The position numbers were made by a program, and so were the translations under genes. 64,000 bases of DNA, taken from IMG/VR virus record IMGVR_UViG_3300013137_002966, positions 29,723-93,722 of that record; one strand, written 5' to 3'. This document shows positions 5,183 to 64,000 of the stretch, in pieces. Source of the stretch: a virus. Position 1 is the first letter of the stretch; each line of letters opens with the position of its first letter. Under the pieces are notes generated by a model that was given only the letters and a program-made list of their open reading frames with translations, was not told where the DNA came from and made no database searches.

Positions 5183-7780
5183 TTATCTCTTTTCAATGTT
5201 TAAGCCTGACAAATCTATTAGAAAGTTTAGATCTGAATTATCTTTACTTTTTTCAATTATTTTTCTATTATTTTCCATAAATCTACTTTTATTATTAGCA
5301 TAAAATTTTATAAAAAAATCTTTATTTTCATTTATTCTTTTAATTTCATTAGCGAATTTGAAGAGTCTTTCTCTGTGATTTAATTCTTTATCATAATCAT
5401 GATTAATTACATCATCAAAAAAATCAAAATCATATTTTTTCTTAATTTCTTGTATATGATTAGGAGAAGCTAAAATAAGTGGAAATTGTAAAGCATAAAA
5501 GGCTTTAAATGATTTCTCTGAAATATGTATAAGATTTGAATTAAACTCTGTTTCTGTTGTTATATTAAAATAAGAATTTTCAAATGTTCTTTTATCATAT
5601 GTTTTATTCCATTCTATATCACTATTAGTATCTCTATTATCAAACCAATTATATTCGGTTTCGTATTTACTCTTTTTTTGATCAATATTATTAAAATAAA
5701 AAATTTCAGGTAATAAGGAATCCATATCTTCTTCATTAAATACATTTGAATAGAAACCTCTATATGGCTTATTTTTCATTTCCCAGCCATTAACTAAAGA
5801 CCAATCAACATCATTAAGAATATTATATTTTTTTAATAAGACAAGTAGACCATATCTATGAGGTCTTACTTTTCTATTTTGACACATAAAAAATTTACCT
5901 TCTTTTTCAATTTTGAAATCAATTTGACCGATACAACTTATTATAGGCGCAGCTATACTATTAGCTAATTTAACTGTTGAATGAGTATTTATATTACTAT
6001 TTAATGATTTTTTAAATTCTTCTAATTTAGAATTATTATTAGATATCCATAATTGATTTTGATCTAATTCCATTGATTTTGTCCAATTATGTATTGTTAT
6101 AAATGTTTCTTCTGTTTCAGATTCCTGCTCATTCATTATAACAATTATTAGATTTTTAAATTTTTTCCAATAATCTATGACTTCTTGAGGCATAGGTAAT
6201 TGATTAGTATCAATTTTTTCTTTTATTTGTCCAGGAAGTAATGTGATAAAATAGAAGAATTTTTTGTCTGGATATTTTTCTACATCACTTAATTTAAATC
6301 TTTTAATATATTGTTCAGGAAATGTAAGAGAGTTTACCACACTATCAATAGGCATAAAATAACAATTTGTATATAATTTTTTACAATTTGGTTCATTTGG
6401 ATAGTTTTTCTCATCATTGAAATTATCATAAACCAAATTGAAAAAATCATTGATTTTTTGCTGTTCTATAAGATTTTCTGTTTTTATTTGTTTTTGTAAT
6501 TGTTCTTGTGACTGTGGTTGTTCTTGTGATTGTGATAATTGATGTATATATTCTATCTCAATGTCTTGAGTAATCAAATTATTAAAAAAAGTAATATCAT
6601 AATCAAGATTTATCTTTTTTATTTTATTAAGGTTCTCTTCAAATCTTTTTTGATTATTTTTATAGAAATTAATAAAAAAATCTTTATTTTCCTGAATTCT
6701 TTTAACTTCCTCTACAAATTTAAATAATCTATCTCTAGAATTACTGATATTATCATAACTGTGGTTAATTATATCATCAAAGAAATCGAAATCATATATT
6801 TCTTTAAGAGTTCTGATATGATGCTTTGATGCTAATATTAATGGAAATTGAAATCCACAAAATGGCTTAAAAGATTTTTCAGTTATATGAATATCTTCAG
6901 AATTAAATTTCGTTTCAGTAGTTATATTAAAATAAGAATTTTCATATGATTTTTGTATAAAAGGTATATTTTGATTTTTATCGTTAAATCCGGTGAAGTC
7001 TAATTCATATTTACTTTGTTGTCTATTTATATTTGAAAAGAAAATCATTTCATTTCGAAAAATATTCATATCAAGATTTGTAAATATTTCTGAATAATAA
7101 TCATCTATTTTATAACTTTCTTTGAAACACACACCATCTACTAAAGACCAATCTGTATCATATAATAAATTATATTTTTTCATTAATACTAAGAGTGCAT
7201 ATCTATGCACTCTTAATGATTTGTTATGACATAAAAATAAATTTTCTTTTTCTTTTATGAAGTTTACACTAAAATTTGATAGAGCGTATCCAGATGCCCT
7301 TGATGTGTGAGTATTTATTTTGCTATTTAAGTTTTTTTTAAATTCACTTAAATTACTATTATTATTGATTATCCAAAATTGATTAGGATCTAAATTTCTA
7401 GATTCAAGTATTTTATCTAAAAAAATGAAACATTCTTTAGACTCAGACTCACATTGATTTATGAAAATTATTTTTAGATTTTTATTACTTTTTAATAATT
7501 CAATTACCTCATTTGTTAGTGGTAATTCATTTTTTGAAAAAAATGAATTAGTATAAGAATGTCTAAACCATTGTAGATAATAAAAATTCTCATTTGGATA
7601 TTTTATTATATCTTCAATTCTAAAATTTTTATAATTATTAAAATCAAAATCTTCAAGTACTTTGTAGCTTACCCTCCAAGATGATGGTTCGTGTGTATAA
7701 AAATATTTTTGACCGTTAGGATTTGGATTTTCGTTATTTATTTCCCAATCATCATATACTAAATTTAAATACATACTCAT
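5183..7780 (-). CDS. Protein with two tandem glycosyltransferase-like domains
   Basis: Two copies of the NLVYD...HRY...ITEKxFKPF domain joined by a Gln-rich linker. Confidence 0.55.
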   Translation of the reverse strand: MSMYLNLVYDDWEINNENPNPNGQKYFYTHEPSSWRVSYKVLEDFDFNNYKNFRIEDIIKYPNENFYYLQWFRHSYTNSFFSKNELPLTNEVIELLKSNKNLKIIFINQCESESKECFIFLDKILESRNLDPNQFWIINNNSNLSEFKKNLNSKINTHTSRASGYALSNFSVNFIKEKENLFLCHNKSLRVHRYALLVLMKKYNLLYDTDWSLVDGVCFKESYKIDDYYSEIFTNLDMNIFRNEMIFFSNINRQQSKYELDFTGFNDKNQNIPFIQKSYENSYFNITTETKFNSEDIHITEKSFKPFCGFQFPLILASKHHIRTLKEIYDFDFFDDIINHSYDNISNSRDRLFKFVEEVKRIQENKDFFINFYKNNQKRFEENLNKIKKINLDYDITFFNNLITQDIEIEYIHQLSQSQEQPQSQEQLQKQIKTENLIEQQKINDFFNLVYDNFNDEKNYPNEPNCKKLYTNCYFMPIDSVVNSLTFPEQYIKRFKLSDVEKYPDKKFFYFITLLPGQIKEKIDTNQLPMPQEVIDYWKKFKNLIIVIMNEQESETEETFITIHNWTKSMELDQNQLWISNNNSKLEEFKKSLNSNINTHSTVKLANSIAAPIISCIGQIDFKIEKEGKFFMCQNRKVRPHRYGLLVLLKKYNILNDVDWSLVNGWEMKNKPYRGFYSNVFNEEDMDSLLPEIFYFNNIDQKKSKYETEYNWFDNRDTNSDIEWNKTYDKRTFENSYFNITTETEFNSNLIHISEKSFKAFYALQFPLILASPNHIQEIKKKYDFDFFDDVINHDYDKELNHRERLFKFANEIKRINENKDFFIKFYANNKSRFMENNRKIIEKSKDNSDLNFLIDLSGLNIEKR

Positions 7781-28603: not shown

Positions 28604-30088
28604 TTGTTAGTGGATGTAGAGTATAGGAGCAATAATTTGATCATTTCTTACATAGATAAATCTGGTCAAATTAAGTTAAAGTACAAAAATTGGCCAAGAC
28701 CCACGAAGTTTATTAAAACAAGTGATGATGATCGCGAAAAATCAGGACAATATGTAACTTGGGATGGAAGTGCTGTAAAAGAAATATACACTAAATATCC
28801 AAATAGATATTCAATTTATGATTTTATAGATAATTTGGCTGATGACGAAAAAGAAGAAATTTATAGTTATAACGAGCCTGATATATTCTTCGTTGATATT
28901 GAAAATGAGATTTTGGATAAAAAACCAGAACCTCATTTAGCTGAAAGTGCAATTCAAACAATATCTATTGTTAATAAAAATAAGATATTAGTAATTGGTA
29001 CAGAACCTTTATCACAGAATCAGATAGAATCTATAGAATCTGATATCAATTTACATTTCAAAAAATTTGAAACTAACTACGCATTTAAGTATATTCAGTA
29101 TAAAAACGAATATGATTTATTAAATAATTTCTTTAATAAATTGGTACCTAAGATGCCTGTTATTACAGGATGGAATTTTATAGAATACGACTGGGTATTT
29201 TTAGTGGCAAGAGCTAGAAAAATCGGCATTGATCCTGATGTTGCATCTTTTACTAGAAAAATGAATACTCCTTTTAATTTTAATTCAGCAGGTAAGCAAA
29301 ACTATGCTGAAATGCCAGCACATAGAGTTATAGTGGACTATATGGAATTATTTTCAAAATGGGATACCTCAGTTAAAGTAAAAGAAAGTTTATCTCTTGA
29401 TTTTGCTTCCGAAAAAATATTAGGTAAAGAAGTAAAAAAAATTAATTATGAAGGTGACTTAAAAAGACTTCATAGAGAAGATTATAAAAAATTCGTTTAT
29501 TATAACGCAGTTGACAGTTGTCTTGTTCAGAGAATTCATATAAAAATGAAATATATTGATATTCTGTATAGTATGGCAGTCTTAGGTAAAATTAAAATTA
29601 AAGATGCAATATCAACTCTTGCACTAACTGAAGGTATATTAAGAGAAAAATTAAGAGATCAAAAAAATATTGTTCTTGTTAGAGATGAACAAAGTGATGA
29701 ATATGGTGAAGGCGGTGGTTCATCAATTAAAGGTGGATGGGTTAAGGAACCAGTGAGAGGAATGGCAACCTGGACCTGTTGTTTTGATTTTGCTTCTCTT
29801 TATCCTACAACCATGCGTCAATTTAATATTTCAGCGGATTCATATAAAGGACAGAAAGTTAAAGGAAAAAACTATTCCATTTTTAATGGACATCAAATAC
29901 CGATAGAAGATGATGATATAGTGACTTTGAATGATTCTGTATTTCGGAAGGAGCAGGGAGTTGTGACACAAGTAATGGGTGAGGTTTATGCAGATAGAAA
30001 GAAATGGAAAAAAGTAATGATGCAAAAACATGAAGAACTTGAAAAATTGAAAGAAGAGTTAAAAAAATTAGAAGATACTCCTTTGTGA
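28604..30088 (+). CDS. polB: Family B DNA polymerase, N-terminal half (exonuclease plus motif A)
   Basis: VDIE, TGWNFIEYD, YNAVD, FDFASLYP; ends in the fingers helix with no KxxxNSxYG or DTDS; likely TTG start. Confidence 0.9.
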   Translation: MLVDVEYRSNNLIISYIDKSGQIKLKYKNWPRPTKFIKTSDDDREKSGQYVTWDGSAVKEIYTKYPNRYSIYDFIDNLADDEKEEIYSYNEPDIFFVDIENEILDKKPEPHLAESAIQTISIVNKNKILVIGTEPLSQNQIESIESDINLHFKKFETNYAFKYIQYKNEYDLLNNFFNKLVPKMPVITGWNFIEYDWVFLVARARKIGIDPDVASFTRKMNTPFNFNSAGKQNYAEMPAHRVIVDYMELFSKWDTSVKVKESLSLDFASEKILGKEVKKINYEGDLKRLHREDYKKFVYYNAVDSCLVQRIHIKMKYIDILYSMAVLGKIKIKDAISTLALTEGILREKLRDQKNIVLVRDEQSDEYGEGGGSSIKGGWVKEPVRGMATWTCCFDFASLYPTTMRQFNISADSYKGQKVKGKNYSIFNGHQIPIEDDDIVTLNDSVFRKEQGVVTQVMGEVYADRKKWKKVMMQKHEELEKLKEELKKLEDTPL

Positions 30089-53846: not shown

Positions 53847-54258
53847 ATTTTAAATGTATTCTGGTTCGACCATCATTCCAATAATTTATATTACCATAAT
53901 AAACTAATATTTCCTCATCTTTTTCAATTCTTTTATTTGATTTAAAAACAAAAATTTCATTTTGGTCATCTGTATACCAAAAAGCATTAGGCATTTCTGA
54001 GTGATTATAATAACAAGCAAATCCCATAGGTAAAACTTGATATTTCCAGTCAGCAGTTGGAAAATTAAATCTATAATCTATAAAAAGAGGACTTAAATCA
54101 CCTTTATTTATAGGTAAAATTAGAAAAGGTACTTCTTCTAATATTTCATTTTCAAAAATTACATCCTTAGCAAAAACACCCCAACCATGAATAGTTGATT
54201 TTCGTAATTGTATTTTGGAATTAAAAAAGAGACTATCTTTCATTTTTGATAAATCCAT
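53845..54258 (-). CDS. SET-domain protein
   Basis: IHGWGVFA, YNHS..PN, EEILVYYG. Confidence 0.9.
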   Translation of the reverse strand: MDLSKMKDSLFFNSKIQLRKSTIHGWGVFAKDVIFENEILEEVPFLILPINKGDLSPLFIDYRFNFPTADWKYQVLPMGFACYYNHSEMPNAFWYTDDQNEIFVFKSNKRIEKDEEILVYYGNINYWNDGRTRIHLK

Positions 54259-54848
54259 TTTTCACCATCATAAATAAATGTAGCAATTTGTCCTGTCTGA
54301 ATTGTTAAAGAATTTGGTAAATCAGTATTATAATTTTGTATCATCATGCTCCAAGTTGAACCACACTTTATAGCAAGTGATGTGTCTTTCCTATTAGATA
54401 AAAAATTATTATTTTTACTTGGTATCGGAAGAATTAAATTATGATAATTTATACCATCATAGGTGCTGAATTCTTTAACATAATCTTCTATTAAATAAGA
54501 ATCATCTAACGAGATTTTTTGTTCATTATTATCTCTTATATCTGCAATTAATGTTTCTCTAGTTTCTAACCATTCTTTCTCCACTTCCATCCATTTATTA
54601 TGAGGACAAGAGCCACCGGGATCTCTATATGTTGCAGAAGTAAACATTTTTGATCTTAATGCACAGCCACAAACTTTACATCTTGTAAGATATTCAACTA
54701 TTTGTGGATCTGGATTAGGAAGCTGAATTACATCTTTAAATTCACAAGAATCACATATAACTATTCTTTTAGATGCAATATCAAAATTGGTCTCATCAGG
54801 ATTGTAAACTATTTTCCAGGATTTGAAAAGTTCTTCTACACTATTCAT
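54240..54848 (-). CDS. Hypothetical protein with Cys-rich N-terminus
   Basis: CDSC, CKVCGC, CPHNKW. Confidence 0.65.
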   Translation of the reverse strand: MNSVEELFKSWKIVYNPDETNFDIASKRIVICDSCEFKDVIQLPNPDPQIVEYLTRCKVCGCALRSKMFTSATYRDPGGSCPHNKWMEVEKEWLETRETLIADIRDNNEQKISLDDSYLIEDYVKEFSTYDGINYHNLILPIPSKNNNFLSNRKDTSLAIKCGSTWSMMIQNYNTDLPNSLTIQTGQIATFIYDGEKWIYQK

Positions 54849-54909
54849 ATTTTTTTATTATTTTTTATTCTATATATTGTCTTTTTGTGAGTCAAAAATT
54901 ATATTAGAA

Positions 54910-54938
54910 TAAAAAAAGACCCTTTCGGGTCTTTTTTT
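54910..54938 (-). terminator. Intrinsic terminator
   Basis: aaaaaaagacc-ctttcg-ggtcttttttt. Confidence 0.85.
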
Positions 54939-54955
54939 ATTCCCAAAACATTATG

Positions 54956-57463
54956 TTATTGTAACACAATCTTTTTAACACTCATTTCTGAACCATCATT
55001 TATTTTTAAATAATAAATACCTTTTGAAAAACTTGTAATATTAATTTGCTCATCATGATTTTGAATATTTTTTAATTCGTTATAATATACAACTTGTCCA
55101 GATGCATTAATCATCTGAATTTTCATATCAGTACTCTTATTATTTATAAAACTAATAGTAAATTTATCATCAACCGGATTAGGATAAACATTAATTCTAT
55201 TTTCTAATGTATAATCATTGACACCAGTACCATAATTAACAATTACAAAATATTCAACAAATGAACAATTTTCTGCCCAAACAGTATAAACAACAGGTGT
55301 AATAAAATCATTAACAGTAACTCCATTAACCTGAGTAATATTATTATGCGTCAACACTGAACCATCACTAGTAACAAAACTAGCTACTAAATTAGTTTTC
55401 TCTATTCTCGTAGGAATTAACAATTCAATAGTCTTACTAGTTTCATTAATGGTTCCAATTATATCAGTGCGTAGTTCTCTGTTATTATCAGAATCAAACC
55501 AATAATTAAGTAATTTTTTTTCACTATTTTCTGGTCGAACCACTGCAGTAACTGTATAAGTTTTAGAAACACCAGATTCTGATGTAATGATAATATTAAT
55601 TGGATTAGTCAAATCAATAACACCAGATGTTCTTGAAGAAGTAGCGCCATCACTAATAACAAAAGAAGAAAATAAAGTTGATAAATTAGTACCATATTTA
55701 ACAGAAACTGTAATATTATTATCAGTGTAAACACCTGGTACAATATATCTAACACCAAAACAATCAGTTAAAGTCAATTTAAAGTCAATTAAATCGTTAC
55801 CAGTCTTGGCAGGTATTTTAGAAACTATAACCTCATATCTTTCTTGAGTTCCATCTTCAGCAGTAACAACATATGTTAAAGCATTAGAATAATTATTAAT
55901 ATTAAAATCACTTATTTGTGGCGTAAAAGTACCATTACTTTCAGCAATAGATACACAAGAATAAATACTACTAGTAAAATATGCTCTTAATTGATAAAGA
56001 TTAGTATTATAAGGAACAATTACATTAATTCTTTTAAGATTCTGATCAATTGAGCCAGAATAAATTGAATCAGGCCATGAAAAACCCCATCCAGTATTTG
56101 TAGCCTTATTAAATCCAAAAGTTAAAATTTGTTTAGTATTACTAGGTACTCCAGCATTAATAATAACAGAATATGTCTTAGTTGTAATACCATCTTCAGC
56201 AGTAATTACAATTGTATTATTGCTAGAATTAAGAACCGTACCAATAGGATCAGAAGTACGAGCCAATAACGAAAAAGTCTCACCATGAATAGTTAAACTG
56301 TTAACACCATAAGGAACATTAAATGTAATAGTATTAGTTCCAATTACACCTAAAACATTACCAGTATAATTCACACCACATAAATTAACTTTAGAATAAT
56401 TTGCATCAATTGAAATTAAATCGCAACCAGTTTTAACAATATCTTTAGTAACAGTTAATGTAAAATCTGACACTTCACTTTTTAATTCAGCTTGAACCCA
56501 AAAATGTAAAACTGTCACGTCACCAGTCAAAGGAAATGATGTACCCGAGCAAATTTCATTGGTTAATGTAGATTCACTAAACATATGTGCATATGGTGAA
56601 ATTGCCCAAACAGGAGCAATAATTGTTGCAGAATATGGAACTACAGCCGTAATATTTTGTGTATTATAATTTACAACAGCTGGTGTTACAGCATTAGGAA
56701 CAATAAATGATAATAAATTATCCTGAATACTAGCAGGTCCCACAATTGGGAGAACAGAATAATTGTGCGCTACACCAGATTGTGAAGTAACAACAAAAAT
56801 CTTTGCTTCTGGAATACCATTATTATCAATATCAAAATCTTGAGCGGTAAAAGAGGTAAAATTACAAGTCGCATAAGGACTAATTGTAAAACGAACCGTA
56901 AGATCATCTAACCTAGCACCAAACGGAACAGGAAAAGTTATATTATCACCAGAAATAGTACCAGGTTCTGTTTGTAAAAACGTACCATTAGGTTCACATG
57001 GACCTGTCCAATTTTTAGCCCAAGCACCACTAAAAGTCAATATACTATTTTCTGTTGATGGAGGTCTAGTAGATATTGTTACTACATAATTTTCATATGA
57101 TAGATTTTCAGCTTGAACAGTCAAAGTTACTGGTTGAGTATAATTCCAACTCGTAATATTTGATACTGCTAATATACCTAATGTTGGATTAGCACCAAAA
57201 AATACCTTAGAAAATTCACTAGAAGTAAAAGTTGCCTTTAATGCAGTAACATTAGTAGCATAAGGTACTGTAATAGCTACTGTACGATTTGCTTGATTAA
57301 TAACTCCTGATATATCAGTTTGTAATTCAGAATTAAATGTTGTTTCAAATCCAAATGTCAACAACATTTTTGCAGAGCTTAAGTTTTGAGCCGATCCCCA
57401 AGAAAAGCTTAGAGCCAACATAATGGCTAGTAAACTAAAAAATTTTCGTAAATGTTTAATCAT
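54956..57463 (-). CDS. Secreted Ig-like repeat (DUF5018-like) protein with T9SS C-terminal sorting domain
   Basis: Signal peptide; VTAEDG/VTSESG repeats; VYPNP...GIYYLKI...KKIV C-terminal domain. Confidence 0.85.
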   Translation of the reverse strand: MIKHLRKFFSLLAIMLALSFSWGSAQNLSSAKMLLTFGFETTFNSELQTDISGVINQANRTVAITVPYATNVTALKATFTSSEFSKVFFGANPTLGILAVSNITSWNYTQPVTLTVQAENLSYENYVVTISTRPPSTENSILTFSGAWAKNWTGPCEPNGTFLQTEPGTISGDNITFPVPFGARLDDLTVRFTISPYATCNFTSFTAQDFDIDNNGIPEAKIFVVTSQSGVAHNYSVLPIVGPASIQDNLLSFIVPNAVTPAVVNYNTQNITAVVPYSATIIAPVWAISPYAHMFSESTLTNEICSGTSFPLTGDVTVLHFWVQAELKSEVSDFTLTVTKDIVKTGCDLISIDANYSKVNLCGVNYTGNVLGVIGTNTITFNVPYGVNSLTIHGETFSLLARTSDPIGTVLNSSNNTIVITAEDGITTKTYSVIINAGVPSNTKQILTFGFNKATNTGWGFSWPDSIYSGSIDQNLKRINVIVPYNTNLYQLRAYFTSSIYSCVSIAESNGTFTPQISDFNINNYSNALTYVVTAEDGTQERYEVIVSKIPAKTGNDLIDFKLTLTDCFGVRYIVPGVYTDNNITVSVKYGTNLSTLFSSFVISDGATSSRTSGVIDLTNPINIIITSESGVSKTYTVTAVVRPENSEKKLLNYWFDSDNNRELRTDIIGTINETSKTIELLIPTRIEKTNLVASFVTSDGSVLTHNNITQVNGVTVNDFITPVVYTVWAENCSFVEYFVIVNYGTGVNDYTLENRINVYPNPVDDKFTISFINNKSTDMKIQMINASGQVVYYNELKNIQNHDEQINITSFSKGIYYLKINDGSEMSVKKIVLQ

Positions 57464-57574
57464 AATTAAAATTGTTTTTTTTTGTTAATATTAAAAAATC
57501 TATTATTGTATTCGCATAATAGATTTCAATCTTATATAAATAAATTTATAAGAAGTTTAAAAAAAGTGAATTTG

Positions 57575-57648
57575 TGCATTCAGAGAGATTCGAACTCTCA
57601 TCTATATCATTCGCAATGATATCCTCTATCCAATTAAGTTATGAATGC
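57575..57648 (-). tRNA. tRNA-Arg(GCG)
   Basis: Cloverleaf; anticodon arm TATCA-TTGCGAA-TGATA; TTCGAAT T-loop. Confidence 0.85.
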
Positions 57649-57675
57649 GTTATTTCAAGCTACAGATATATTTTG

Positions 57676-57747
57676 TGCACCCAGCAAGATTCGAACTCGC
57701 ACACGATGGGTCGAAACCACCGATCCTTCCATTTAAATGATGAGTGC
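57676..57747 (-). tRNA. tRNA-Arg(TCG)
   Basis: GGTGG-TTTCGAC-CCATC; TTCGAAT. Confidence 0.85.
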
Positions 57748-57753
57748 ATTTTT

Positions 57754-58236
57754 TTAGACAGAGCCAAATATGGAAGCATCAACTTTTCTTAACTTATCTC
57801 TCCTTAAAATTATATTCTTATATTTTTTAATATCCTTATTACCTTCATCTAAACACTGTTCCAATAAATCATTAGTTTCATTCATCACAATTTTTTTTGT
57901 CCAATTTGAGCTATTATCACCATAATGATTAGTATCAAATCCAATCATCCAATAACCATCAAAATTTTTATAATTTTCTAATGTTATATCACCATCAAAC
58001 TCTCTATCACCTATCCATTCTAGAAAATATTCAGCTTCAAATTTTTGTGCAAAAGTCAATCCACCATGTATTCTTACATCATTTATATTATCATAATCTT
58101 TTCCATAAAAAGGATGATTTGGAGGTAATAAAACATAACCAGTACCCCAACCGTAATCAAAACCAATATCAAACATACTAAGTTTTGACTTGCTTAAAAT
58201 ATTCTCAATTATTAATGTGTATATTCCATATTTCAT
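57754..58236 (-). CDS. Conserved phage hypothetical protein within the tRNA array
   Basis: GYV..P..HP.YG, IHGGLTF, GFDTNH; TATCTTTG element at 58241-58248 just upstream of the ATG. Confidence 0.75.
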   Translation of the reverse strand: MKYGIYTLIIENILSKSKLSMFDIGFDYGWGTGYVLLPPNHPFYGKDYDNINDVRIHGGLTFAQKFEAEYFLEWIGDREFDGDITLENYKNFDGYWMIGFDTNHYGDNSSNWTKKIVMNETNDLLEQCLDEGNKDIKKYKNIILRRDKLRKVDASIFGSV

Positions 58237-58317
58237 AATACAAAGATAATAAAAAAAATTAATATTGGTGAATTTTTTTATGTAACGCACAATTTGTTAA
58301 AAAAATTGTTAAAAATG

Positions 58318-58391
58318 CGTGAGTGGAGGGTCACGATCCCCCAACCTTTTGATTAACAGTCAAATGCTCTAACCAATTGAGCTACACTCAC
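58318..58391 (-). tRNA. tRNA-Asn(GTT)
   Basis: TTTGA-CTGTTAA-TCAAA; G73; T-loop ATCGTGA. Confidence 0.9.
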
Positions 58392-58405
58392 TTATGTAAA
58401 ATTTG

Positions 58406-58488
58406 TAGTGTCGATGGGACTCGAACCCATATTTGCAACATACCAAATTACAGTTCTCGAAAGTATCAGTTTCGGCTGGTACGACACC
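58406..58488 (-). tRNA. Non-canonical tRNA-like RNA, anticodon GAT (Ile), no D-arm at the normal position
   Basis: Acceptor GGTGTCG/CGACACT; CGAAA-CTGATAC-TTTCG follows directly; canonical T-arm. Confidence 0.75.
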
Positions 58489-58494
58489 ATATTG

Positions 58495-58575
58495 TACTGG
58501 AGGTTGGATTCGAACCAACGTTTTCAACTTCCCACTACGTGTATAGAAGGTATAAGCTTCCAACGGTACCCCAGC
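58495..58575 (-). tRNA. Non-canonical tRNA-like RNA, anticodon TAT (Ile), same architecture
   Basis: GCTGGGG/CTCCAGT; GGAAG-CTTATAC-CTTCT; T-arm GTTGG-TTCGAAT-CCAAC. Confidence 0.75.
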
Positions 58576-58584
58576 ATAATTTTG

Positions 58585-58658
58585 TGGGTATGACAGAACT
58601 TGAATCTGTGACCTTTTGATTATCAGTCAAATGCTCTAACCAACTGAGCTACACACCC
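58585..58658 (-). tRNA. tRNA-Ile(GAT)
   Basis: TTTGA-CTGATAA-TCAAA; A73. Confidence 0.92.
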
Positions 58659-58662
58659 ATAT

Positions 58663-58764
58663 AGATTAAATGTGAAAGATTCGAACTTATCACCACCTCG
58701 TACCTGCCGAGATATTACGGATTGATTACCGTAAGTACTAACCACTTATACGAACATTTAATCT
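58663..58764 (-). ncRNA. tRNA-like RNA with 11-bp acceptor-type stem, 8-nt anticodon loop and variable arm
   Basis: AGATTAAATGT/ACATTTAATCT; D-loop AAGTGGTTA; TTACGG-TAATCAAT-CCGTAA; CTCG/CGAG; TTCGAAT. Confidence 0.7.
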
Positions 58765-58766
58765 TG

Positions 58767-58851
58767 TACCGTGAGTGGGAGTCGAACCCACGATGTCCTT
58801 ACGGACGGAGGCTTATGAGGCCCCTGCGATAGCCACTCCGCTCACCACGGT
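58767..58851 (-). tRNA. tRNA(CAT) (Met or Ile2) with long variable arm
   Basis: GGGGC-CTCATAA-GCCTC; V-arm GTCC-GTAA-GGAC. Confidence 0.85.
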
Positions 58852-58856
58852 ATTTG

Positions 58857-58941
58857 AGACGCTGATCGGACTCGAACCGACATACCCTTTCGGGATTGAC
58901 AGTTTTGCAGACTGCTAGCTAAACCATTCACCCACAGCGTC
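58857..58941 (-). tRNA. tRNA-Cys(GCA) with long variable arm
   Basis: GCAGT-CTGCAAA-ACTGT; V-arm CCC-GAAA-GGG; U73. Confidence 0.88.
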
Positions 58942-58956
58942 ATATAAAAAAATTTG

Positions 58957-59038
58957 TGGGAATAGATGGACTCGAACCACCGAACTCATACGAGAGCTGA
59001 TTTACAGTCAGCCGCAATTGCCACTATGCGATATTCCC
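58957..59038 (-). tRNA. tRNA-Tyr(GTA)
   Basis: GCTGA-CTGTAAA-TCAGC; V-arm; A73. Confidence 0.93.
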
Positions 59039-59110
59039 GTGGTATAAAGGTATCAGTAGCTTTCCTTTATCTTTCACTTTTTATCACCATTGCTACTATG
59101 TTGTGATAAA
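59039..59110 (-). ncRNA. Two-hairpin element with complementary loops
   Basis: TTTATCAC/GTGATAAA and ATAAAGG/CCTTTAT stems; loops contain AGTAGC and GCTACT. Confidence 0.55.
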
Positions 59111-59117
59111 CTCAGAG

Positions 59118-59192
59118 CACCCCTGAACGGTTACAATCCGTTTATTTTACTAAAGTGACAGTCTAGTTCTCCATCAAGGAGCCTACAAGGGT
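59118..59192 (-). tRNA. Divergent tRNA-Asp(GTC)
   Basis: ACCCTTG/CAGGGGT, G73, CTAGA-CTGTCAC-TTTAG; atypical D- and T-loops. Confidence 0.7.
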
Positions 59193-59199
59193 AATTTTG

Positions 59200-59267
59200 T
59201 GCCACCGGAAGTATTCGAAACTTCGAGCTGGGGTTTTACAGACCCGTCTTCTCCCTGGATCGTTGGC
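59200..59267 (-). tRNA. Short (68 nt) tRNA-Tyr(GTA)-like RNA with reduced D-arm and no V-arm
   Basis: GGGT-CTGTAAA-ACCC; GAAGT-TTCGAAT-ACTTC. Confidence 0.7.
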
Positions 59268-59272
59268 ATTTG

Positions 59273-59346
59273 CGGGGTTGACGGAACTCGAATCCGCGAC
59301 CACTTGAGTGACAGTCAAGTATTCTAACCATCTGAACTACAACCCC
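59273..59346 (-). tRNA. tRNA-Asp(GTC)
   Basis: CTTGA-CTGTCAC-TCAAG; G73. Confidence 0.93.
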
Positions 59347-59688
59347 TTAAAAACCAAATTCATTATAAATTCTAAGCCAATTTTTAATTGAATTACCAGT
59401 TACTCCATATTTTCTACCAGTTCCTTCTAAACCTAAAAGGTTTATTTCTTCAACTAATTTTTCATAAGGTGGTCTTTCAACTTTTCTTTGATTTATATAT
59501 GATTTTATTTCTTCTTTTGTAAATCCTTTATCATTTCTCTCTTTTTTAATATATTTTTTTGTTTCATATACAATTCCAACTTTTATTTTTTCAACTTTAT
59601 CGTTATTAGTAAGTTTAAATTTTAATATCTCAATTACATTTTCAATGTTATTTTTTACTTCATTTTCTGATACTCTAATCAATAGCAT
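59347..59688 (-). CDS. Truncated endonuclease remnant with HTH (DUF559-like tail)
   Basis: LIRVSENEVKNNIENV resembles a Vsr/DUF559 C-terminus; GRKYGVTGNSIKNW HTH. Confidence 0.5.
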   Translation of the reverse strand: MLLIRVSENEVKNNIENVIEILKFKLTNNDKVEKIKVGIVYETKKYIKKERNDKGFTKEEIKSYINQRKVERPPYEKLVEEINLLGLEGTGRKYGVTGNSIKNWLRIYNEFGF

Positions 59689-59712
59689 CTCATTGTAATC
59701 TCACACCTCCTG

Positions 59713-59783
59713 TACTCCCAGCGGATCCTGAGACCGCATCTTATCCTTGAAGGGGATATATCCTGCCTTTAGAAGATGGGAGC
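59713..59783 (-). tRNA. Divergent tRNA-Glu(TTC)
   Basis: GCTCCCA/TGGGAGT; TATCC-CCTTCAA-GGATA (C33); atypical T-loop. Confidence 0.75.
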
Positions 59784-59892
59784 ATGTTAAGGAAAACAGA
59801 ATACATTTTTTATTTGAATAAACGGTTCAATTTTTTTAGAATTGCTGTACGTATTCTTTATTTCCTTAATATTTTTCAAAAATTCACCAATA

Positions 59893-59903
59893 TGTCAAAG
59901 AAC
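59893..59903 (-). promoter_or_regulatory. rrn-type boxA antitermination element
   Basis: GTTCTTTGACA between the attenuator and the first tRNA. Confidence 0.65.
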
Positions 59904-59930
59904 CCTCACTTTATCAACTTCACTAAAAAC

Positions 59931-59963
59931 AAAAAACCCAGTCTTTTTTTGGACTGGGTTTTT
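59931..59963 (-). terminator. Attenuator 1 terminator
   Basis: AAACCCAGTC-CAAAAAAA-GACTGGGTTTTTT. Confidence 0.9.
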
Positions 59964-59983
59964 ATAATTTTTTTATAATTAGA

Positions 59984-60076
59984 TTATGATACTTCCAGTC
60001 CATATAGAGCATAATCCTCACATTCATTAATATTATTAATGTTGCGATAATCACATATGTTCATTCGGTTTTTCAT
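59984..60076 (-). CDS. Leader peptide 1 (MKNRMNICDYRNINNINECEDYALYGLEVS)
   Basis: 30-aa ORF; contains TGGACTGG, complementary to the terminator 5' arm. Confidence 0.85.
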   Translation of the reverse strand: MKNRMNICDYRNINNINECEDYALYGLEVS

Positions 60077-60139
60077 AACTCTTTTCTTTCTATTAATTTG
60101 TTTTATTTCTTACTTTATTTTTACTTCTCTTATAGAATA

Positions 60140-60170
60140 CAAATATACAAAAGTTTTTTTAATTTACAAA
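60140..60170 (-). promoter_or_regulatory. Bacteroidota sigma70-type promoter
   Basis: TTTG (60170-60167), 19 nt spacer, TATATTTG (60147-60140). Confidence 0.75.
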
Positions 60171-60199
60171 TATATATTAAATATTTTTTTCGTTTTTTT

Positions 60200-60490
60200 C
60201 TACTTTTTTTTATTTAGTTGATATTTAGATAATTTTATTATTCTTATAAATTTTTTATTGACTTGGTTTTTAGGTACTGTGTATAAAAATATAATTCTTT
60301 GTAACCATTTTATGTTTCTAAGAGTAATCAGATTATCTAATTTAATGAATAAGTGATATTTTCTGATTTGTTTTTTAGTAAATTTTTTTCTTTGTGTATA
60401 AAATTCACTAAATATTCTTTTATGAAAATAGTTAAAGTGTATTTTTTTCCACCACCAAGTTCCTCTATAAGTAATTAAAATTTTAAAAAT
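60200..60490 (-). CDS. Possible 96-aa basic protein with ATT start
   Basis: 97-codon open frame with no ATG/GTG/TTG; AAGGAG directly before ATT. Confidence 0.4.
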   Translation of the reverse strand: MFKILITYRGTWWWKKIHFNYFHKRIFSEFYTQRKKFTKKQIRKYHLFIKLDNLITLRNIKWLQRIIFLYTVPKNQVNKKFIRIIKLSKYQLNKKK

Positions 60491-60509
60491 ATTCTCCTTT
60501 CTTATTTAG

Positions 60510-60583
60510 TTGCGAATGGTTGGATTCGAACCAACGACCTCGAGCTTATGAAACTCGCTAGCTGACCACTGCTACACACCGCA
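60510..60583 (-). tRNA. tRNA-Met(CAT), initiator-like body, divergent
   Basis: CGAGT-TTCATAA-GCTCG; extra nucleotide in the acceptor stem. Confidence 0.8.
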
Positions 60584-60599
60584 ATATTCTTTTATTTTG

Positions 60600-60672
60600 T
60601 TGCGGGAGAAGGACTTGAACCTCCGACCTTCAGGTTATGGGCCTGACGAGCTACCAACTGCTCTATCCCGCG
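60600..60672 (-). tRNA. tRNA-fMet(CAT)
   Basis: C1:A72 mismatch; TCAGG-CCCATAA-CCTGA. Confidence 0.9.
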
Positions 60673-60680
60673 ATATATTT

Positions 60681-60779
60681 TTATGTCAAATGTCCAACTG
60701 AACCAAATGAATCACCAGCTTTTTTCTTAGCAACTATCATCAAAACAAATAATGCTATTATAATACCTATTACTATCAT
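60681..60779 (-). CDS. Small single-TM protein (32 aa)
   Basis: MIVIGIIIALFVLMIVAKKK...; starts just after the stop of 60782. Confidence 0.5.
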   Translation of the reverse strand: MIVIGIIIALFVLMIVAKKKAGDSFGSVGHLT

Positions 60780-60781
60780 TT

Positions 60782-61138
60782 TTATACTTTTTTCAAATTT
60801 GTTATAAAATCTTCTGTAGATATTTTATAATCTGAATAATCACAAATTACCTGATAATTAATATTTACAAATTCTTTTATCTTTTCTAGTACTTCTGTTG
60901 TTATTAATTTATTGTTAACCTCTCCAATTATTTCAAATTTCGGTATAGTAAGAACAAAACTATCAGATGGATCGAATGAATTTTTAACATTACAAACTTT
61001 AATTCTTCTCCAATGTTTACCAGGATTAGGTCCTATCCATAAAACAACATCTTTTATACCAGTTGTTTTAGAAGAAACGTTAGACATTTCTAATAGTTCT
61101 TGTTCCTGATATTCTTTATATTCTAATATTTTTTTCAT
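60782..61138 (-). CDS. Hypothetical protein under attenuator 2
   Basis: MKKILEYKEY...LLEM N-terminus. Confidence 0.75.
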   Translation of the reverse strand: MKKILEYKEYQEQELLEMSNVSSKTTGIKDVVLWIGPNPGKHWRRIKVCNVKNSFDPSDSFVLTIPKFEIIGEVNNKLITTEVLEKIKEFVNINYQVICDYSDYKISTEDFITNLKKV

Positions 61139-61332
61139 TTTTTTTTCTCTTCTTTTTCCAGTTTCTTTTTTATTTTTTCCATTAGTTCTTCAACTTTTGT
61201 ATTCATACCTTTTTCAGTTTTTGGAACATCTTTATCGTCTATGTTCAACTGGTCTGCTAATTTAATAAATTTTTCTGTTAACTCGGACTTTTTTTTAAGT
61301 TCTTCGTAATTTTTTTGTATTTTTTCAGCCAT
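61135..61332 (-). CDS. Small charged protein directly after the attenuator 2 U-tract
   Basis: ORF; ATG abuts the terminator. Confidence 0.65.
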   Translation of the reverse strand: MAEKIQKNYEELKKKSELTEKFIKLADQLNIDDKDVPKTEKGMNTKVEELMEKIKKKLEKEEKKK

Positions 61333-61363
61333 AAAAAAACCCAGTCATTTTTTGTGGCTGGGT
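61333..61363 (-). terminator. Attenuator 2 terminator
   Basis: ACCCAGCCA-CAAAAAA-TGACTGGGT-TTTTTT (one mismatch). Confidence 0.85.
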
Positions 61364-61390
61364 ATATATTGAAGGCTTTCGCCTAGAGTT

Positions 61391-61459
61391 TTATCCAGCC
61401 AATTGAGAGGTATCATTAATCATCTCATAACACATCTCTATATATAAATTACGATACAT
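61391..61459 (-). CDS. Leader peptide 2 (MYRNLYIEMCYEMINDTSQLAG)
   Basis: 22-aa ORF; contains TGGCTGG, complementary to terminator arm CCAGCCA. Confidence 0.8.
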   Translation of the reverse strand: MYRNLYIEMCYEMINDTSQLAG

Positions 61460-61573
61460 CTTCTTTCTTTCTTGTTTTATTTTTTAATATTAGTAACTCT
61501 TTTTAGTAAGGTTTAATTTTTGTTATATATTTCTTTAAAAATGTCGTTTTTTCTATTTTTATATCTTCTTTTA

Positions 61574-61604
61574 CAAAGATAGGATATTATTTTAATACTA
61601 CAAA
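61574..61604 (-). promoter_or_regulatory. Bacteroidota sigma70-type promoter
   Basis: TTTG (61604-61601), 19 nt spacer, TATCTTTG (61581-61574). Confidence 0.75.
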
Positions 61605-61607
61605 ATA

Positions 61608-62735
61608 TTATTCATTTTTTAATTGTTCTAAAAACTTATATGCTTTCTTATGATAATCTCTATCTTTATAATTGCTTGTCATTAGGTATGTGATATAGCA
61701 GAAATATAATAATTTACTAATTATTAAGTCTTTATTTACCTGTCCACCAACAAATCTATATTCAACATAGTTTTTTGTCTTAAGATAGCCGATATTAAAA
61801 CCAAAATGTTTAACACCTATTTTATTAATATAATCAACTAAGAAATTATTAAAAAAGGTTTCTACTTCCCGTAGGTTATGAAGGTCTAGAGAATCAAATT
61901 TTGCTTTTTGTTTAGCAGGTAAAAATAATAAAGATCTTTTAACTGATGTACAGAATTTACTATTTAATCTTTCAATCATATCTCTAAACACAAAAGGTAT
62001 ATCATCAAAATCATAGTCATCTAATATAACTAAACCTTTGAGAGCATTAAAATCCTCATATTTCTTTCCTTTAATTCCAATGTTTATATGTAATCCTGTG
62101 GTTTGAGTAAATTTCCAATAGTTTTGTTTATCAAAATCATTAAAGAAATCTTCTAAAAGTTTTAAAGTTGTATCTAATCCTAGCAGATAAGTTTTTGGCT
62201 TGAATTCTATACCTCTTTCTAGTGTTGCATCTAATACAAATTCTAGATCGTTGCTATATTTTGCGTAAAAATTGGGTAGATACCTTTCGACATTTTCTTC
62301 GAGATACTCTCTATTTTCTCTTAATAATAGCGTTTTTATGGCTTTTTCCATACCTATTATTATATTTTTCTCAATTTCTGTAGAATATAATTGTGGATCC
62401 AGAAGCTTATTAATTTTGCTTTCTAATTTTTTAGTGCTAAGTTCTTGATATAGATAAGACTCTATAGTATCTACTATATTGTTAATAAAAGGTTTATTTT
62501 TCTTGACTTCTGATTGGTTGAGATCAATATTATATACTGTTAATTCTTTGAGACATATTTCTCTGAATTCATCAACATCATCATAGTCAAAATTATCGTA
62601 GGTTATATCGTGATGTTCTAAGTCGTTGGTTTCCAATTCAAATTCAATAGCAATAGTAAAATCCTTAGCTATTTCTTCTGATTTAATTCGCTGAATGTCT
62701 TTGATATTAAATTCGTAGAATTTTTCTATTTTCAT
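61608..62735 (-). CDS. Putative amidoligase (COOH-NH2 ligase type 2)
   Basis: AIEFELET, GIEF, TGLHINIG, VEYRF.GG. Confidence 0.7.
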   Translation of the reverse strand: MKIEKFYEFNIKDIQRIKSEEIAKDFTIAIEFELETNDLEHHDITYDNFDYDDVDEFREICLKELTVYNIDLNQSEVKKNKPFINNIVDTIESYLYQELSTKKLESKINKLLDPQLYSTEIEKNIIIGMEKAIKTLLLRENREYLEENVERYLPNFYAKYSNDLEFVLDATLERGIEFKPKTYLLGLDTTLKLLEDFFNDFDKQNYWKFTQTTGLHINIGIKGKKYEDFNALKGLVILDDYDFDDIPFVFRDMIERLNSKFCTSVKRSLLFLPAKQKAKFDSLDLHNLREVETFFNNFLVDYINKIGVKHFGFNIGYLKTKNYVEYRFVGGQVNKDLIISKLLYFCYITYLMTSNYKDRDYHKKAYKFLEQLKNE

Positions 62736-62744
62736 AAATAGAAT

Positions 62745-62945
62745 TTATTTTTTAATTTTGCTTTTAAGTTTATCTATTAATTCGTTAGCTTTATTTATTC
62801 CTAGTTTTGCCTTCATAGAGTGGTATAAATTATAAAACTTTTCAGCAAATTCATCTTCGACTTCCATATTCATTGGTGCATCTTCTGAATCTCCAAATAA
62901 GCTATCTGCTAAATTATATTCTTCAAATGTTTTAACTTTTTTCAT
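62745..62945 (-). CDS. Hypothetical protein
   Basis: MKKVKTFEEY start. Confidence 0.65.
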   Translation of the reverse strand: MKKVKTFEEYNLADSLFGDSEDAPMNMEVEDEFAEKFYNLYHSMKAKLGINKANELIDKLKSKIKK

Positions 62946-63118
62946 AATAGAATTTTTTCTACTATATATAAAAAATAAAAAGGATAATTTCTTATCCTTT
63001 TACTTAAATTACTACAGGTATTTATTTCCACTATGGTAGCCCGAACCTTATCTTTTTTGGATTAAGTGACACTTATGCCTTGTGATCTTTTTAGTCCTGC
63101 ACCGACAGTTTCTATTTT

Positions 63119-63463
63119 TCAATGGAACAGATTTCCACTTCGGTTAGTAATTTGTTTAGCAAAAATATTAATAACTAAATTATTAGATTTCTTACTACTT
63201 GGAATTAAAGAATTTAATTGGATTTGGTTATTATCATATTCATAAGTAGCACTCACATTATTAAAATAGAGTTTACCTTGTTCAAAAATTCTTTCATTAT
63301 CAGTCATAGAGAGAAAATCTAATTTTTGAAGTGTATCATTCATTTTATCATAAAAGAACCACTGATATAATTTTGATTTATCAGTTTCTTTTGAATAATG
63401 ATATTTTATTTCAAATAGTGTGTATAATTCGTTATCAAAGATATATTTAATAGTATTTTCCAT
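63119..63463 (-). CDS. Hypothetical protein
   Basis: ORF. Confidence 0.6.
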   Translation of the reverse strand: MENTIKYIFDNELYTLFEIKYHYSKETDKSKLYQWFFYDKMNDTLQKLDFLSMTDNERIFEQGKLYFNNVSATYEYDNNQIQLNSLIPSSKKSNNLVINIFAKQITNRSGNLFH

Positions 63464-63466
63464 TTT

Positions 63467-64000
63467 TTAATGTTTACTAATTCTAACATGTTTAAGTTTA
63501 CGGAAAAGATCACCATGTTCAAGTGAGGATTCATATTCGCCATCATTATCAGAATACTCAAAAATATAAAGTGCAAAATCTGGTAGTTCACCATTTATTC
63601 TCTTAAGTTTATTTTTTCTAATGTTAAGAATATCATTAAGTTTTTTATTGCCATATTTTATACAAGCTTTACGATATTCTTCCCATCTTTTTTGTCTATC
63701 ATTTATATATTCAAAATCATCGTAATCTGGTGCGTCATAATCATCCGCTATACCGCTACTAAGTTCTTTAGAAGCTTTTTCAAAATCATTTTTAGTTTGA
63801 TTACAAATATCATTCCACACTGTAGTTGCAACATTATTTATGCTCCAACTATTATCATCAAAATGAGGACTATTATAAACTCTTTGTTTTTTATCAAAAA
63901 GCATATCTCTAACATCTTCCATAGATTTAGGTTCTCTCGGAAAGATTACAATAAAGCTACTTGAGCTACTATTACTTACAAATCCATTTCTTATTTTCAT
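63467..64000 (-). CDS. Conserved phage protein (MKIRNGFVSNSSSSSF family)
   Basis: Characteristic N-terminus. Confidence 0.75.
   Translation of the reverse strand: MKIRNGFVSNSSSSSFIVIFPREPKSMEDVRDMLFDKKQRVYNSPHFDDNSWSINNVATTVWNDICNQTKNDFEKASKELSSGIADDYDAPDYDDFEYINDRQKRWEEYRKACIKYGNKKLNDILNIRKNKLKRINGELPDFALYIFEYSDNDGEYESSLEHGDLFRKLKHVRISKH

Follow-up and report, generated by a model that had tools for sequence, protein, structure and literature searches.

A probable ribosome-mediated attenuator as the first gate of a phage tRNA operon

Background

Multivalent leaders of amino-acid operons sense two or three amino acids. In the attenuators of enterobacterial amino-acid operons (trpL, hisL, leuL, and pheL as well as those of thr and ilvGMEDA), the position of the ribosome selects which RNA structure is formed (PMC1183508). 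Here, an element of this general architecture is described from the IMG/VR virus record IMGVR_UViG_3300013137_002966, of which positions 29,723 to 93,722 were analyzed (64,000 nucleotides (nt), henceforth called the window, i.e., the final 64 kb of one contig of 93.7 kb, whose G+C content is 25%). The element, referred to as attenuator 2, is probably a ribosome-mediated (leader-peptide) transcription attenuator that acts as the first gate of a phage operon of transfer RNA (tRNA) genes, and a second element of this kind, attenuator 1, lies downstream of it. All coordinates are those of the window, and the promoters, leaders, terminators, and tRNA genes of the operon are on its minus strand.

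Attenuators in series are known from the pyr operon of Bacillus subtilis, where three PyrR-dependent attenuators multiply the regulatory range. Why and when phages use tRNA genes has been debated for decades, with codon compensation set against escape from tRNA-targeting immunity. The abstracts of two studies describe phage tRNA sets as proposed or demonstrated substitutes for host tRNAs that are lost to anticodon nucleases, retron effectors, and similar agents (PMC10264068, PMC11555353). The trn operon of Anabaena sp. PCC 7120, a supernumerary and horizontally spread tRNA array, is silent until translation is impaired and then aids survival (PMC8421152); it is controlled via direct repeats in its promoter, which are bound by the ribbon-helix-helix (RHH) repressor TrcR (PMC8421152, PMC10272220). 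Leader-peptide systems were known only in Proteobacteria and Actinobacteria when a survey published in 2010 added the Firmicutes (PMC2965389).

Results

Anatomy of the attenuator and its leader peptide

The leader open reading frame (ORF) of attenuator 2 (MYRNLYIEMCYEMINDTSQLAG, 61459-61391) comprises 22 codons followed by TAA. Its last three sense codons contain the 5′ strand of an antiterminator (TGGCTGG, 61401-61395), which pairs with CCAGCCA at 61361-61355 in the 5′ arm of the terminator. The terminator (61363-61333) consists of this 5′ arm (ACCCAGCCA, 61363-61355), the loop CAAAAAA, a 3′ arm (TGACTGGGT, 61347-61339), and a run of seven T. Inside the loop of the antiterminator lies a small hairpin with a 4-bp stem and a GAAA loop (AGGC-GAAA-GCCT, 61384-61373). 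A preliminary description of this DNA, made from the sequence alone, had proposed a promoter, leader, hairpin, antiterminator, and terminator on the minus strand, and all of them were read where it had placed them; there is, however, a C·A mismatch in the terminator stem. In the 93.7-kb genome, the only two occurrences of the CCCAG...CTGGG terminator motif are those at the attenuators, and the terminators at both attenuators also read as terminators on the plus strand. A generic terminator scan misses the attenuator 2 terminator of the window. Attenuator 1 (60076-59931) consists of a 30-codon leader (60076-59984), an antiterminator strand (TGGACTGG), and a terminator at 59963-59931.

Codons 2-16 of the attenuator 2 leader (61456-61412), taken as sensor codons, specify Tyr, Arg (CGT), Asn, Leu, Tyr, Ile (ATA), Glu, Met, Cys, Tyr, Glu, Met, Ile, Asn, and Asp, and 14 of these 15 are decoded by tRNAs encoded downstream. 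The earlier claim that 15 of the first 16 codons come from the set M/Y/R/N/I/E/C/D was confirmed, the sole exception being Leu-5, and chance falls far short of explaining the enrichment: when the 93.7-kb genome was surveyed in all six frames (592 ORFs starting with ATG and having at least 18 codons), 15 of 16 was reached only by the two leaders, and the next ORF had 12 of 16. Codons read by the phage tRNAs have a background frequency of 39.4% in the long ORFs of the genome, compared with 83.5% of the sensor codons (243 of 291) pooled over 12 leaders. In these 12 window-type leaders, Arg is spelled CGN in 13 of 16 cases, versus 12% in the genes of the genome, and Lys accounts for 2% of the pooled codons versus a background of 8%.

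The last sensor codon is separated from the antiterminator strand by a spacer of non-sensor codons, i.e., Thr-Ser-Gln running into Leu (61411-61402), and a spacer of two or three codons from outside the set recurs in the orthologues (T-S-Q/K, E-S-K, M-S-Q, T-S), the range over all copies being one to three. Ribosome footprint sizes, on which the masking geometry depends, are general knowledge. The length of the spacer would hold a ribosome stalled at the last sensor codon off the antiterminator strand. The stop codon (61393-61391) is located 1 nt past this strand in the window, and the geometry fits in all copies, with the stop either inside the strand or not more than about 10 nt after it.

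Match between leader codons and downstream anticodons

Relatives of the locus were drawn from IMG/VR and metagenome contigs (labels L001, L004 etc.), and further leaders were found in related large phage contigs by a pattern scan and a generic attenuator finder. In L037 and L089, a leader containing YYYEAYEE precedes genes for Glu(TTC), Tyr, Glu, Glu(CTC), and Tyr tRNAs; another, rich in GGG, GGC, GGT, GCG, GCA, and ATA, precedes Ile(TAT)-like, Gly(TCC), Gly(GCC), Ala(GGC), and Ala(TGC) genes; and a third, with CTA, TTG, CTC, TTA, two AGA, four ACA, six Asn codons, and one TGT, is followed by Leu(TAA), Leu(AAG), Leu(TAG), Arg(TCT), two Asn, Thr(TGT), and Cys genes. In L027 and L075, the leader has nine Ser codons, which represent all three isoacceptor groups, as well as CGC and CGA, and it stands ahead of Arg(ACG), Ser(TGA), Ser(GGA), and Ser(GCT). 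When all five classes, including that of the window, were compared in a leader-by-array matrix, each leader matched its own array best, and the observed sum was reached by 1 of 120 permutations, i.e., the identity. The match includes the spelling of Arg, which is CGN with arrays containing Arg(TCG/GCG/ACG) and AGA with the Arg(TCT) array, as well as the rare GC-rich codons CGC, GGG, GCG, and TCG, which across the classes are used precisely where the matching tRNA follows in spite of the G+C content of 25%. The terminators of the other classes are unrelated in sequence, and each has a matching upstream strand (e.g., GTTCGGGTT/AACCCGAAC and GGTTCGA/TCGAAC). An alternative leader frame in L037 and L089 (M-K-R-M-R-N...) was rejected, as the single change by which the two contigs differ in this stretch is silent in the YYYEAYEE frame but alters the peptide in the alternative one.

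Because the match extends down to synonymous codons, AT bias and amino-acid sensing cannot explain it, and it fits sensing of the tRNA pool. The preliminary description had argued for selection on codon identity rather than on the peptide, which is borne out by the leader-tRNA match at isoacceptor level in five independent classes. It had also regarded the attenuator as a sensor of an amino-acid set; the codon set is indeed kept in the relatives, whereas the sensed quantity is, judging from these comparisons, best described as tRNA availability rather than amino acids. A classical amino-acid starvation sensor similar to the multivalent thr or ilv leaders, by which the phage would tune its expression to host supply, would have the same architecture, since it is that of amino-acid operon leaders, and uncharged tRNA stalls ribosomes likewise. 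However, the regulated genes are tRNAs, which bring no relief of amino-acid shortage, and an amino-acid sensor provides no reason for the choice among synonymous codons to follow the downstream isoacceptor; we consider such a sensor very improbable.

The same terminator/antiterminator cassette with a leader of different character was found in L027 (minus strand), L075, and L105, where the arrangement TTGACTGGG / CCCAGTCAA / TTGACTGGG-T-run comes after a short leader (M-K-A-L-H-T-Y-K...) that is enriched for no tRNA set. These non-enriched copies show an additional local CTGGG/CCCAG pairing. Their presence before protein genes indicates that codon-specific sensing is not a property of every copy, and it lends some weight to the explanation that the attenuator is coupled to translation and reports its global state only (ribosome supply or general shut-off), the composition of the leader being incidental. 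The structure would permit this, as any failure to reach the stop codon would lead to read-through in a leader that has no protector hairpin. Such a global reporter is nonetheless unlikely, given that leader codons track downstream anticodons in five classes down to synonymous Arg, Leu, and Ser codons, that both window leaders are extreme outliers genome-wide, and that the GC-rich codons appear exactly ahead of their tRNAs.

Conservation and alternative pairing

The unit of host-type promoter, leader, small hairpin, terminator, 65-amino-acid gene, and tRNA(CAT) recurs in at least nine other phage contigs. It is present as a whole in L001, L004, L013, L014, L017, L018, and L066, and it is kept in L023 and L087 with a different or divergent first ORF; the leader peptide of L017 is identical in at least seven further loci. 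The ten distinct orthologous leaders have 18-29 codons and are all open. All eight amino acids of the set occur in nine of the ten (read from the peptides), and the antiterminator strand is in the same frame (Leu-Thr-Gly/Glu, stop) in 9/10, a one-base shift in the tenth placing the stop codon inside the strand.

Twelve attenuators (seven copies of attenuator 2 and five of attenuator 1) were folded as nascent RNA cut before the 3′ arm of the terminator. The antiterminator with the enclosed small hairpin was predicted in all 12 (−10 to −19 kcal mol−1), and the terminator was predicted to form when the antiterminator strand was blocked as by a terminating ribosome. The stems of the hairpin vary (AGGC/GCCU, AGGU/ACCU, GGCA/UGCC, AGGCU/AGCCU, and AU-only in the attenuator 1 copies). 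Hence, the hairpin that had been noted earlier is conserved, but the GNRA loop ascribed to it is not, the relatives having UUAU, GAAU, or other loops.

Pairing was counted over the 12 copies from an anchored table (a MAFFT alignment of all 12 tails misregistered four attenuator 1 strands), and covariation scores were computed on a MAFFT alignment of the attenuator 2-type copies. According to the anchored table, every one of the 12 copies has an antiterminator helix of 7-10 contiguous bp, and compensatory changes are seen at three positions. At position −1, 11 copies have A-U and the window has G-C; as the terminator 3′ arm of the window keeps A here, the C·A mismatch results. At position −2, the pair is G-C except in two attenuator 1 copies with A-U, of which one has only G·U in the terminator, and position −3 is U-A or G-C, with the terminator unpaired there in two copies. 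A compensatory change had been proposed in the preliminary description and was recovered against the orthologues, which have TTGACTGG/CCAGTCAA where the window has TGGCTGG/CCAGCCA, the terminator 3′ arm still being TGACTGG. Some changes were not followed by the terminator 3′ arm, namely, in attenuator 2 and attenuator 1 of the window and in attenuator 1 of L001, so that in several cases the 5′ arm has co-evolved with the upstream strand and not with its terminator partner. In the attenuator 2-type alignment, 95% of the antiterminator cells are paired, versus 3-44% in slid registers. The terminators of the orthologues form a perfect stem of 9-11 bp (99% of cells paired), in which one position varies between C-G, A-U, and U-A; the observed covariation score was reached by 1 of 500 shuffles.

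These data also bear on whether the small ORF is a functional micropeptide, or not translated, and the hairpin with its T-run serves to end the transcript of the upstream gene as an ordinary and possibly bidirectional terminator or as an RNA-stability element. The attenuator 2 peptide has a fairly well conserved N-terminus (M-Y-R-N-L-Y-I-E-M-C), and the reading of the terminators on the plus strand would suit such a role. Yet the peptides of attenuators 1 and 2 are alike in composition and not in sequence, with lengths of 18-43 codons and the frame kept; furthermore, the leader is separated from the upstream gene by a promoter, and the upstream complementary strand co-varies with the terminator 5′ arm. 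We regard this explanation as highly improbable.

Rfam was searched with cmscan over 54000-64000 at E-values up to 1, which returned tRNAs and sub-threshold chance matches only, and neither a cis-regulatory family, nor one of the amino-acid leader families (Trp, His, Leu, Thr, Phe, others), nor the T-box (RF00230) was matched. A leader RNA that binds tRNA directly in the manner of a T-box, with translation not needed, would agree with the apparent tRNA signal, T-boxes being known tRNA-sensing attenuators. Apart from the lack of an Rfam match, such a mechanism would require a single leader to bind eight different tRNAs, and the upkeep of the frame together with the placement of the stop codon indicates translation; its probability is accordingly judged to be minimal.

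Other searches for the locus yielded little. An exact 21-mer of attenuator 1 was found among viral contigs in the L001 contig only, the attenuator is not present near the distant relatives of the 118-amino-acid protein (L005-L012), and a search via the neighboring 113-amino-acid protein gave no match. In GenBank phages, distant blastn retrieved tRNA-sized matches only and no relative of the locus. The terminator pattern matched at least 120 loci in bacterial genomes, which were ordinary terminators with no codon-matched leader among the matches listed. The sequencing runs listed for the locus are of lake-water DNA only, with no RNA run among them, and attenuator variants were not seen in the contigs of four of these runs, whose cover of the locus is patchy.

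Promoters and arrangement of the two attenuators

The contig originates from a lake-water metagenome, and its genes include a phage-type DNA polymerase, homing endonucleases, and PhoH. An 835-amino-acid repeat protein (54956-57463) has the C-terminal sorting domain of type IX secretion (PF18962, E = 5e-17), which points to Bacteroidota as the host of the phage. A protein with a type IX sorting domain is unusual phage cargo.

The promoter of attenuator 2, as read from the sequence (61604-61574; −33 TTTG, N19, −7 TAtcTTTG), is of the Bacteroidota type. It is situated immediately past the stop codon of the upstream 375-amino-acid gene, and an A-rich leader RNA of about 108 nt separates it from the region of the 22-codon ORF. 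The motif TTTG-N17-21-TAnnTTTG has three matches in the window, which is no more than in shuffles, and two of the three precede the two leaders. As the host-type motif is rare in the window, most phage genes are probably not read from consensus host promoters; the tRNA operon, unlike these, probably is. A generic sigma-70 scan gave promoters not above chance, its consensus being unsuited to a Bacteroidota host.

In the relatives, the motif scan found the strict motif ahead of the orthologous leaders in L004, L017, and L018, and the promoter motif was seen by eye in L013, L014, and L023. In L004, L017, and L018, the strict motif occurs upstream of attenuator 2 only and is lacking between the two leaders, which indicates that the attenuators are truly in series there. 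In L001, it has no match anywhere in the scanned region, which is neutral as regards this arrangement. The motif scan of the window revealed a second host-type promoter (60170-60140) ahead of attenuator 1, so that the two attenuators would act in series and, additionally, in parallel. The serial arrangement put forward in the preliminary description thus applies to the three relatives and, for the window, describes one of two routes.

A conserved block in the presumed 5′ untranslated region of attenuator 2 (61560-61511), identified by alignment, comprises TAGA, an A-run, YGAS, a T-run, and then ATATATAA and TTAAAC, and it is the best-conserved stretch among eight aligned orthologous upstream regions. 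A similar A-run/T-run block is found upstream of the attenuator 1 promoter at about 60203-60171, and in L017 the block flanks the promoter on both sides. Its varying position relative to the promoter suggests a DNA site (operator or UP-like element) rather than an RNA element. The block near both promoters could be a protein site that provides a second input at the promoter level.

Genes behind the attenuators

The T-run of the attenuator 2 terminator is abutted by the ATG (61332) of a 65-amino-acid Lys/Glu-rich ORF (61332-61135), whose homologues were aligned. These follow the orthologous terminators in L001, L004, L013, L014, L017, L018, and L066, and the protein has no match in PHROG, Pfam, or Atlas. 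Next is a 118-amino-acid ORF (61138-60782) of a viral protein family (65 homologues), which is weakly DUF4160-like by Atlas features and structure. As its gene lies upstream of the attenuator in L004, it does not invariably belong to the regulated unit; of the two proteins named earlier as controlled by the attenuator, the 65-amino-acid one keeps its place behind the terminator in most relatives. A 32-amino-acid hydrophobic ORF (60779-60681) without a family match precedes two genes for tRNA(CAT). The first (60672-60599) was called by ARAGORN as well as by Infernal (61.6 bits) and is initiator-like in its fold, with C1·A72 and A11:U24. The second (60582-60511) was found by Infernal (50.1 bits) and by ARAGORN at a lowered threshold only. 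The two tRNA-Met genes of the preliminary description are therefore both supported as tRNA(CAT), although ARAGORN at its default calls just one of them.

The main array behind attenuator 1 (59783-57574) encodes Glu(UUC)-like, Asp, Tyr, Cys, CAT, Ile(GAT), Ile(TAT), Asn, Arg(TCG), and Arg(GCG) tRNAs, bringing the CAT copies of the cluster to three, and two ORFs lie inside the array interval. The near-universal U33 is replaced by C33 in two tRNA-like genes, i.e., in CCCAUAA (60672-60599) and CCUUCAA (59783-59713). Bacteria normally keep extra variable arms for Leu, Ser, Tyr, and selenocysteine tRNAs. In this cluster and its relatives, tRNAs with CAT, GCA, TTC, GTT, and GTC anticodons are often 84-90 nt long and have an extra arm in the variable region (window 58766-58941; L001, L004, L013, L017, L018).

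Several further elements were observed around the array. Directly 3′ of the attenuator 1 terminator, the motif TTCTTTGACATATTGG (window 59902-59887) is conserved in four contigs (the window contig, L001, L004, and L018), with a variant in L017; in the relatives, it is followed by a variable hairpin and then by the first tRNA. Given the TTGACA within it, the motif may serve a different sigma factor as promoter or may be a site of processing. A non-tRNA spacer between tRNA genes (window 59105-59035; L004 1845-1922) is conserved with apparently compensating stem changes and has no Rfam match. A repeated inter-tRNA element with the complementary ends AAAGAAAAC ... GTTTTCT is present at 59856-59797 of the window and at about 5185-5250 and 7160-7300 of L001; its Rfam match to Dictyostelium class I RNA (33.4 bits, gathering threshold 41.5) is probably due to chance. 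In L017, a GIY-YIG-like ORF was seen by eye at about 5300-5890, between the 65-amino-acid gene and a duplicated tRNA(CAT) pair.

Discussion

Taken as a leader-peptide attenuator, the locus would operate as follows. Host RNA polymerase would initiate at the Bacteroidota-type promoter, and a ribosome would follow on the 22-codon leader, where the 15 sensor codons would sample Met and Ile-ATA (CAT), Ile, Asn, Asp, Glu, Tyr, Cys, and Arg-CGN decoding. If decoding is fast, the ribosome at the stop codon would cover TGGCTGG and probably melt the small hairpin; with TGGCTGG masked, the 5′ arm of the terminator would pair with the 3′ arm, and transcription would end at 61333. If any sampled codon is slow, the ribosome would stall upstream, leaving TGGCTGG free to pair with CCAGCCA once this has been made, and formation of the antiterminator would preclude the terminator and permit read-through. 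Ribosome stalling would thus be the signal. The read-through transcript would include the 65-amino-acid gene and the tRNA(CAT) genes; in most relatives, it would extend through attenuator 1 and the main array as well. Accumulation of the phage tRNAs would then close the gate, resulting in a demand-driven and self-limiting supply, and two like gates in series would sharpen the response. The small hairpin may pause the polymerase or merely close the antiterminator loop. As the 3′ arm and the T-run stand directly before the start codon of the 65-amino-acid gene, the terminator may also limit translation of this gene. The physiological trigger could be codon demand of the phage or a tRNA-cleaving defense of the host.

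A number of points weigh against this mechanism. It is predicted, rather than observed, that the leader is translated, that transcription terminates at 61333, and that read-through occurs. The terminator stem of the window, with its internal C·A mismatch, is weak (−8.7 kcal mol−1 by RNAfold), and at equilibrium the full leader folds into the antiterminator; going by these folds, attenuator 2 of the window may leak or stand open most of the time. A protector hairpin of the trp 1:2 type is absent, and no leader segment is complementary to the antiterminator strand, so that an untranslated leader would by default read through. The antiterminator helix is nearly invariant among the attenuator 2 orthologues, with one compensatory event and a score reached by 46 of 500 shuffles. 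The covariation that the preliminary description had proposed to look for is therefore evident at three positions over the 12 copies, but within the orthologues it amounts to that single event, and the support for the antiterminator comes mostly from conservation, from the slid-register controls, and from attenuator 1 and the other classes. In the window, attenuator 1 has its own promoter (60170-60140), and since only tRNA(CAT) and small proteins are encoded between the attenuators, the match to eight amino acids depends on read-through into the attenuator 1 array. Within that array, the Glu(UUC)-like gene (59783-59713) is atypical, with a non-canonical T loop, and was called by neither ARAGORN nor Infernal, while its homologues in L004 and L018 are called. 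Finally, the cassettes with non-enriched leaders in L027, L075, and L105 precede protein-coding genes.

A broader interpretation, which is put forward only tentatively, is that of a distributed surveillance of the tRNA pool at isoacceptor level. Each block of tRNA genes would stand behind a leader written in its own codons, and the loss of host tRNAs would switch on their exact replacements, with attenuator 2 as the master gate. The loss would be brought about by anticodon nucleases, by other tRNA-cleaving defenses, or by the AT-rich codon demand of the phage. In this scheme, attenuator 2 would also turn on the initiator-type tRNA(CAT) and the 65-amino-acid protein, which may be a counter-defense or tRNA-related factor, and the C33 loops and extra variable arms would make the replacement tRNAs nuclease-resistant.

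If the leader-peptide mechanism is true, the phage measures the speed of decoding codon by codon and makes tRNAs on demand. It would add tRNA genes as a new regulatory target of a textbook mechanism, provide the most multivalent leader known (eight amino acids), and place leader-peptide attenuation in a phage of Bacteroidota. As the leaders would name the tRNAs that the phage expects to be short, depletion of particular host tRNAs during infection could be predicted from them, and they could serve as compact natural biosensors of the tRNA pool.

With the leaders of amino-acid operons, the phage system has in common a short translated leader rich in regulatory codons and a terminator whose 5′ arm also pairs upstream. 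It differs from them in that tRNA genes are regulated instead of biosynthetic enzymes, in that eight amino acids are represented in 15 codons, mostly by one to three codons each and not by a run, and in that the match is at the level of codon and isoacceptor. Moreover, it is without a 1:2 protector hairpin and instead has a small hairpin inside the antiterminator loop, and it is phage-encoded, with a probable Bacteroidota host and no match to an Rfam leader family. The pyr operon likewise has serial attenuators that respond to one signal, although there it is an RNA-binding protein with uridine monophosphate (UMP), and not a translating ribosome, that does the sensing. T-box riboswitches are similar as transcription attenuators with the state of tRNA as input; unlike the phage system, they bind one specific uncharged tRNA directly, involve no translation, and control genes for aminoacyl-tRNA synthetases and amino-acid genes.

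A full-text literature search, from which most subscription journals were absent, gave no account of leader-peptide attenuation of tRNA genes. Regarding phage tRNAs in counter-defense, the anticodon-loop changes given in the abstracts resemble C33 in the two window genes, and these abstracts do not mention a sensor of tRNA shortage that regulates phage tRNA genes (PMC10264068, PMC11555353). For the Anabaena trn operon, the published control is by promoter repeats and TrcR, with no mention of a leader peptide, attenuation, or a terminator (PMC8421152, PMC10272220), in contrast to the arrangement proposed here. In function, this array, which is induced by translational stress, is the nearest published parallel to the phage tRNA operon.

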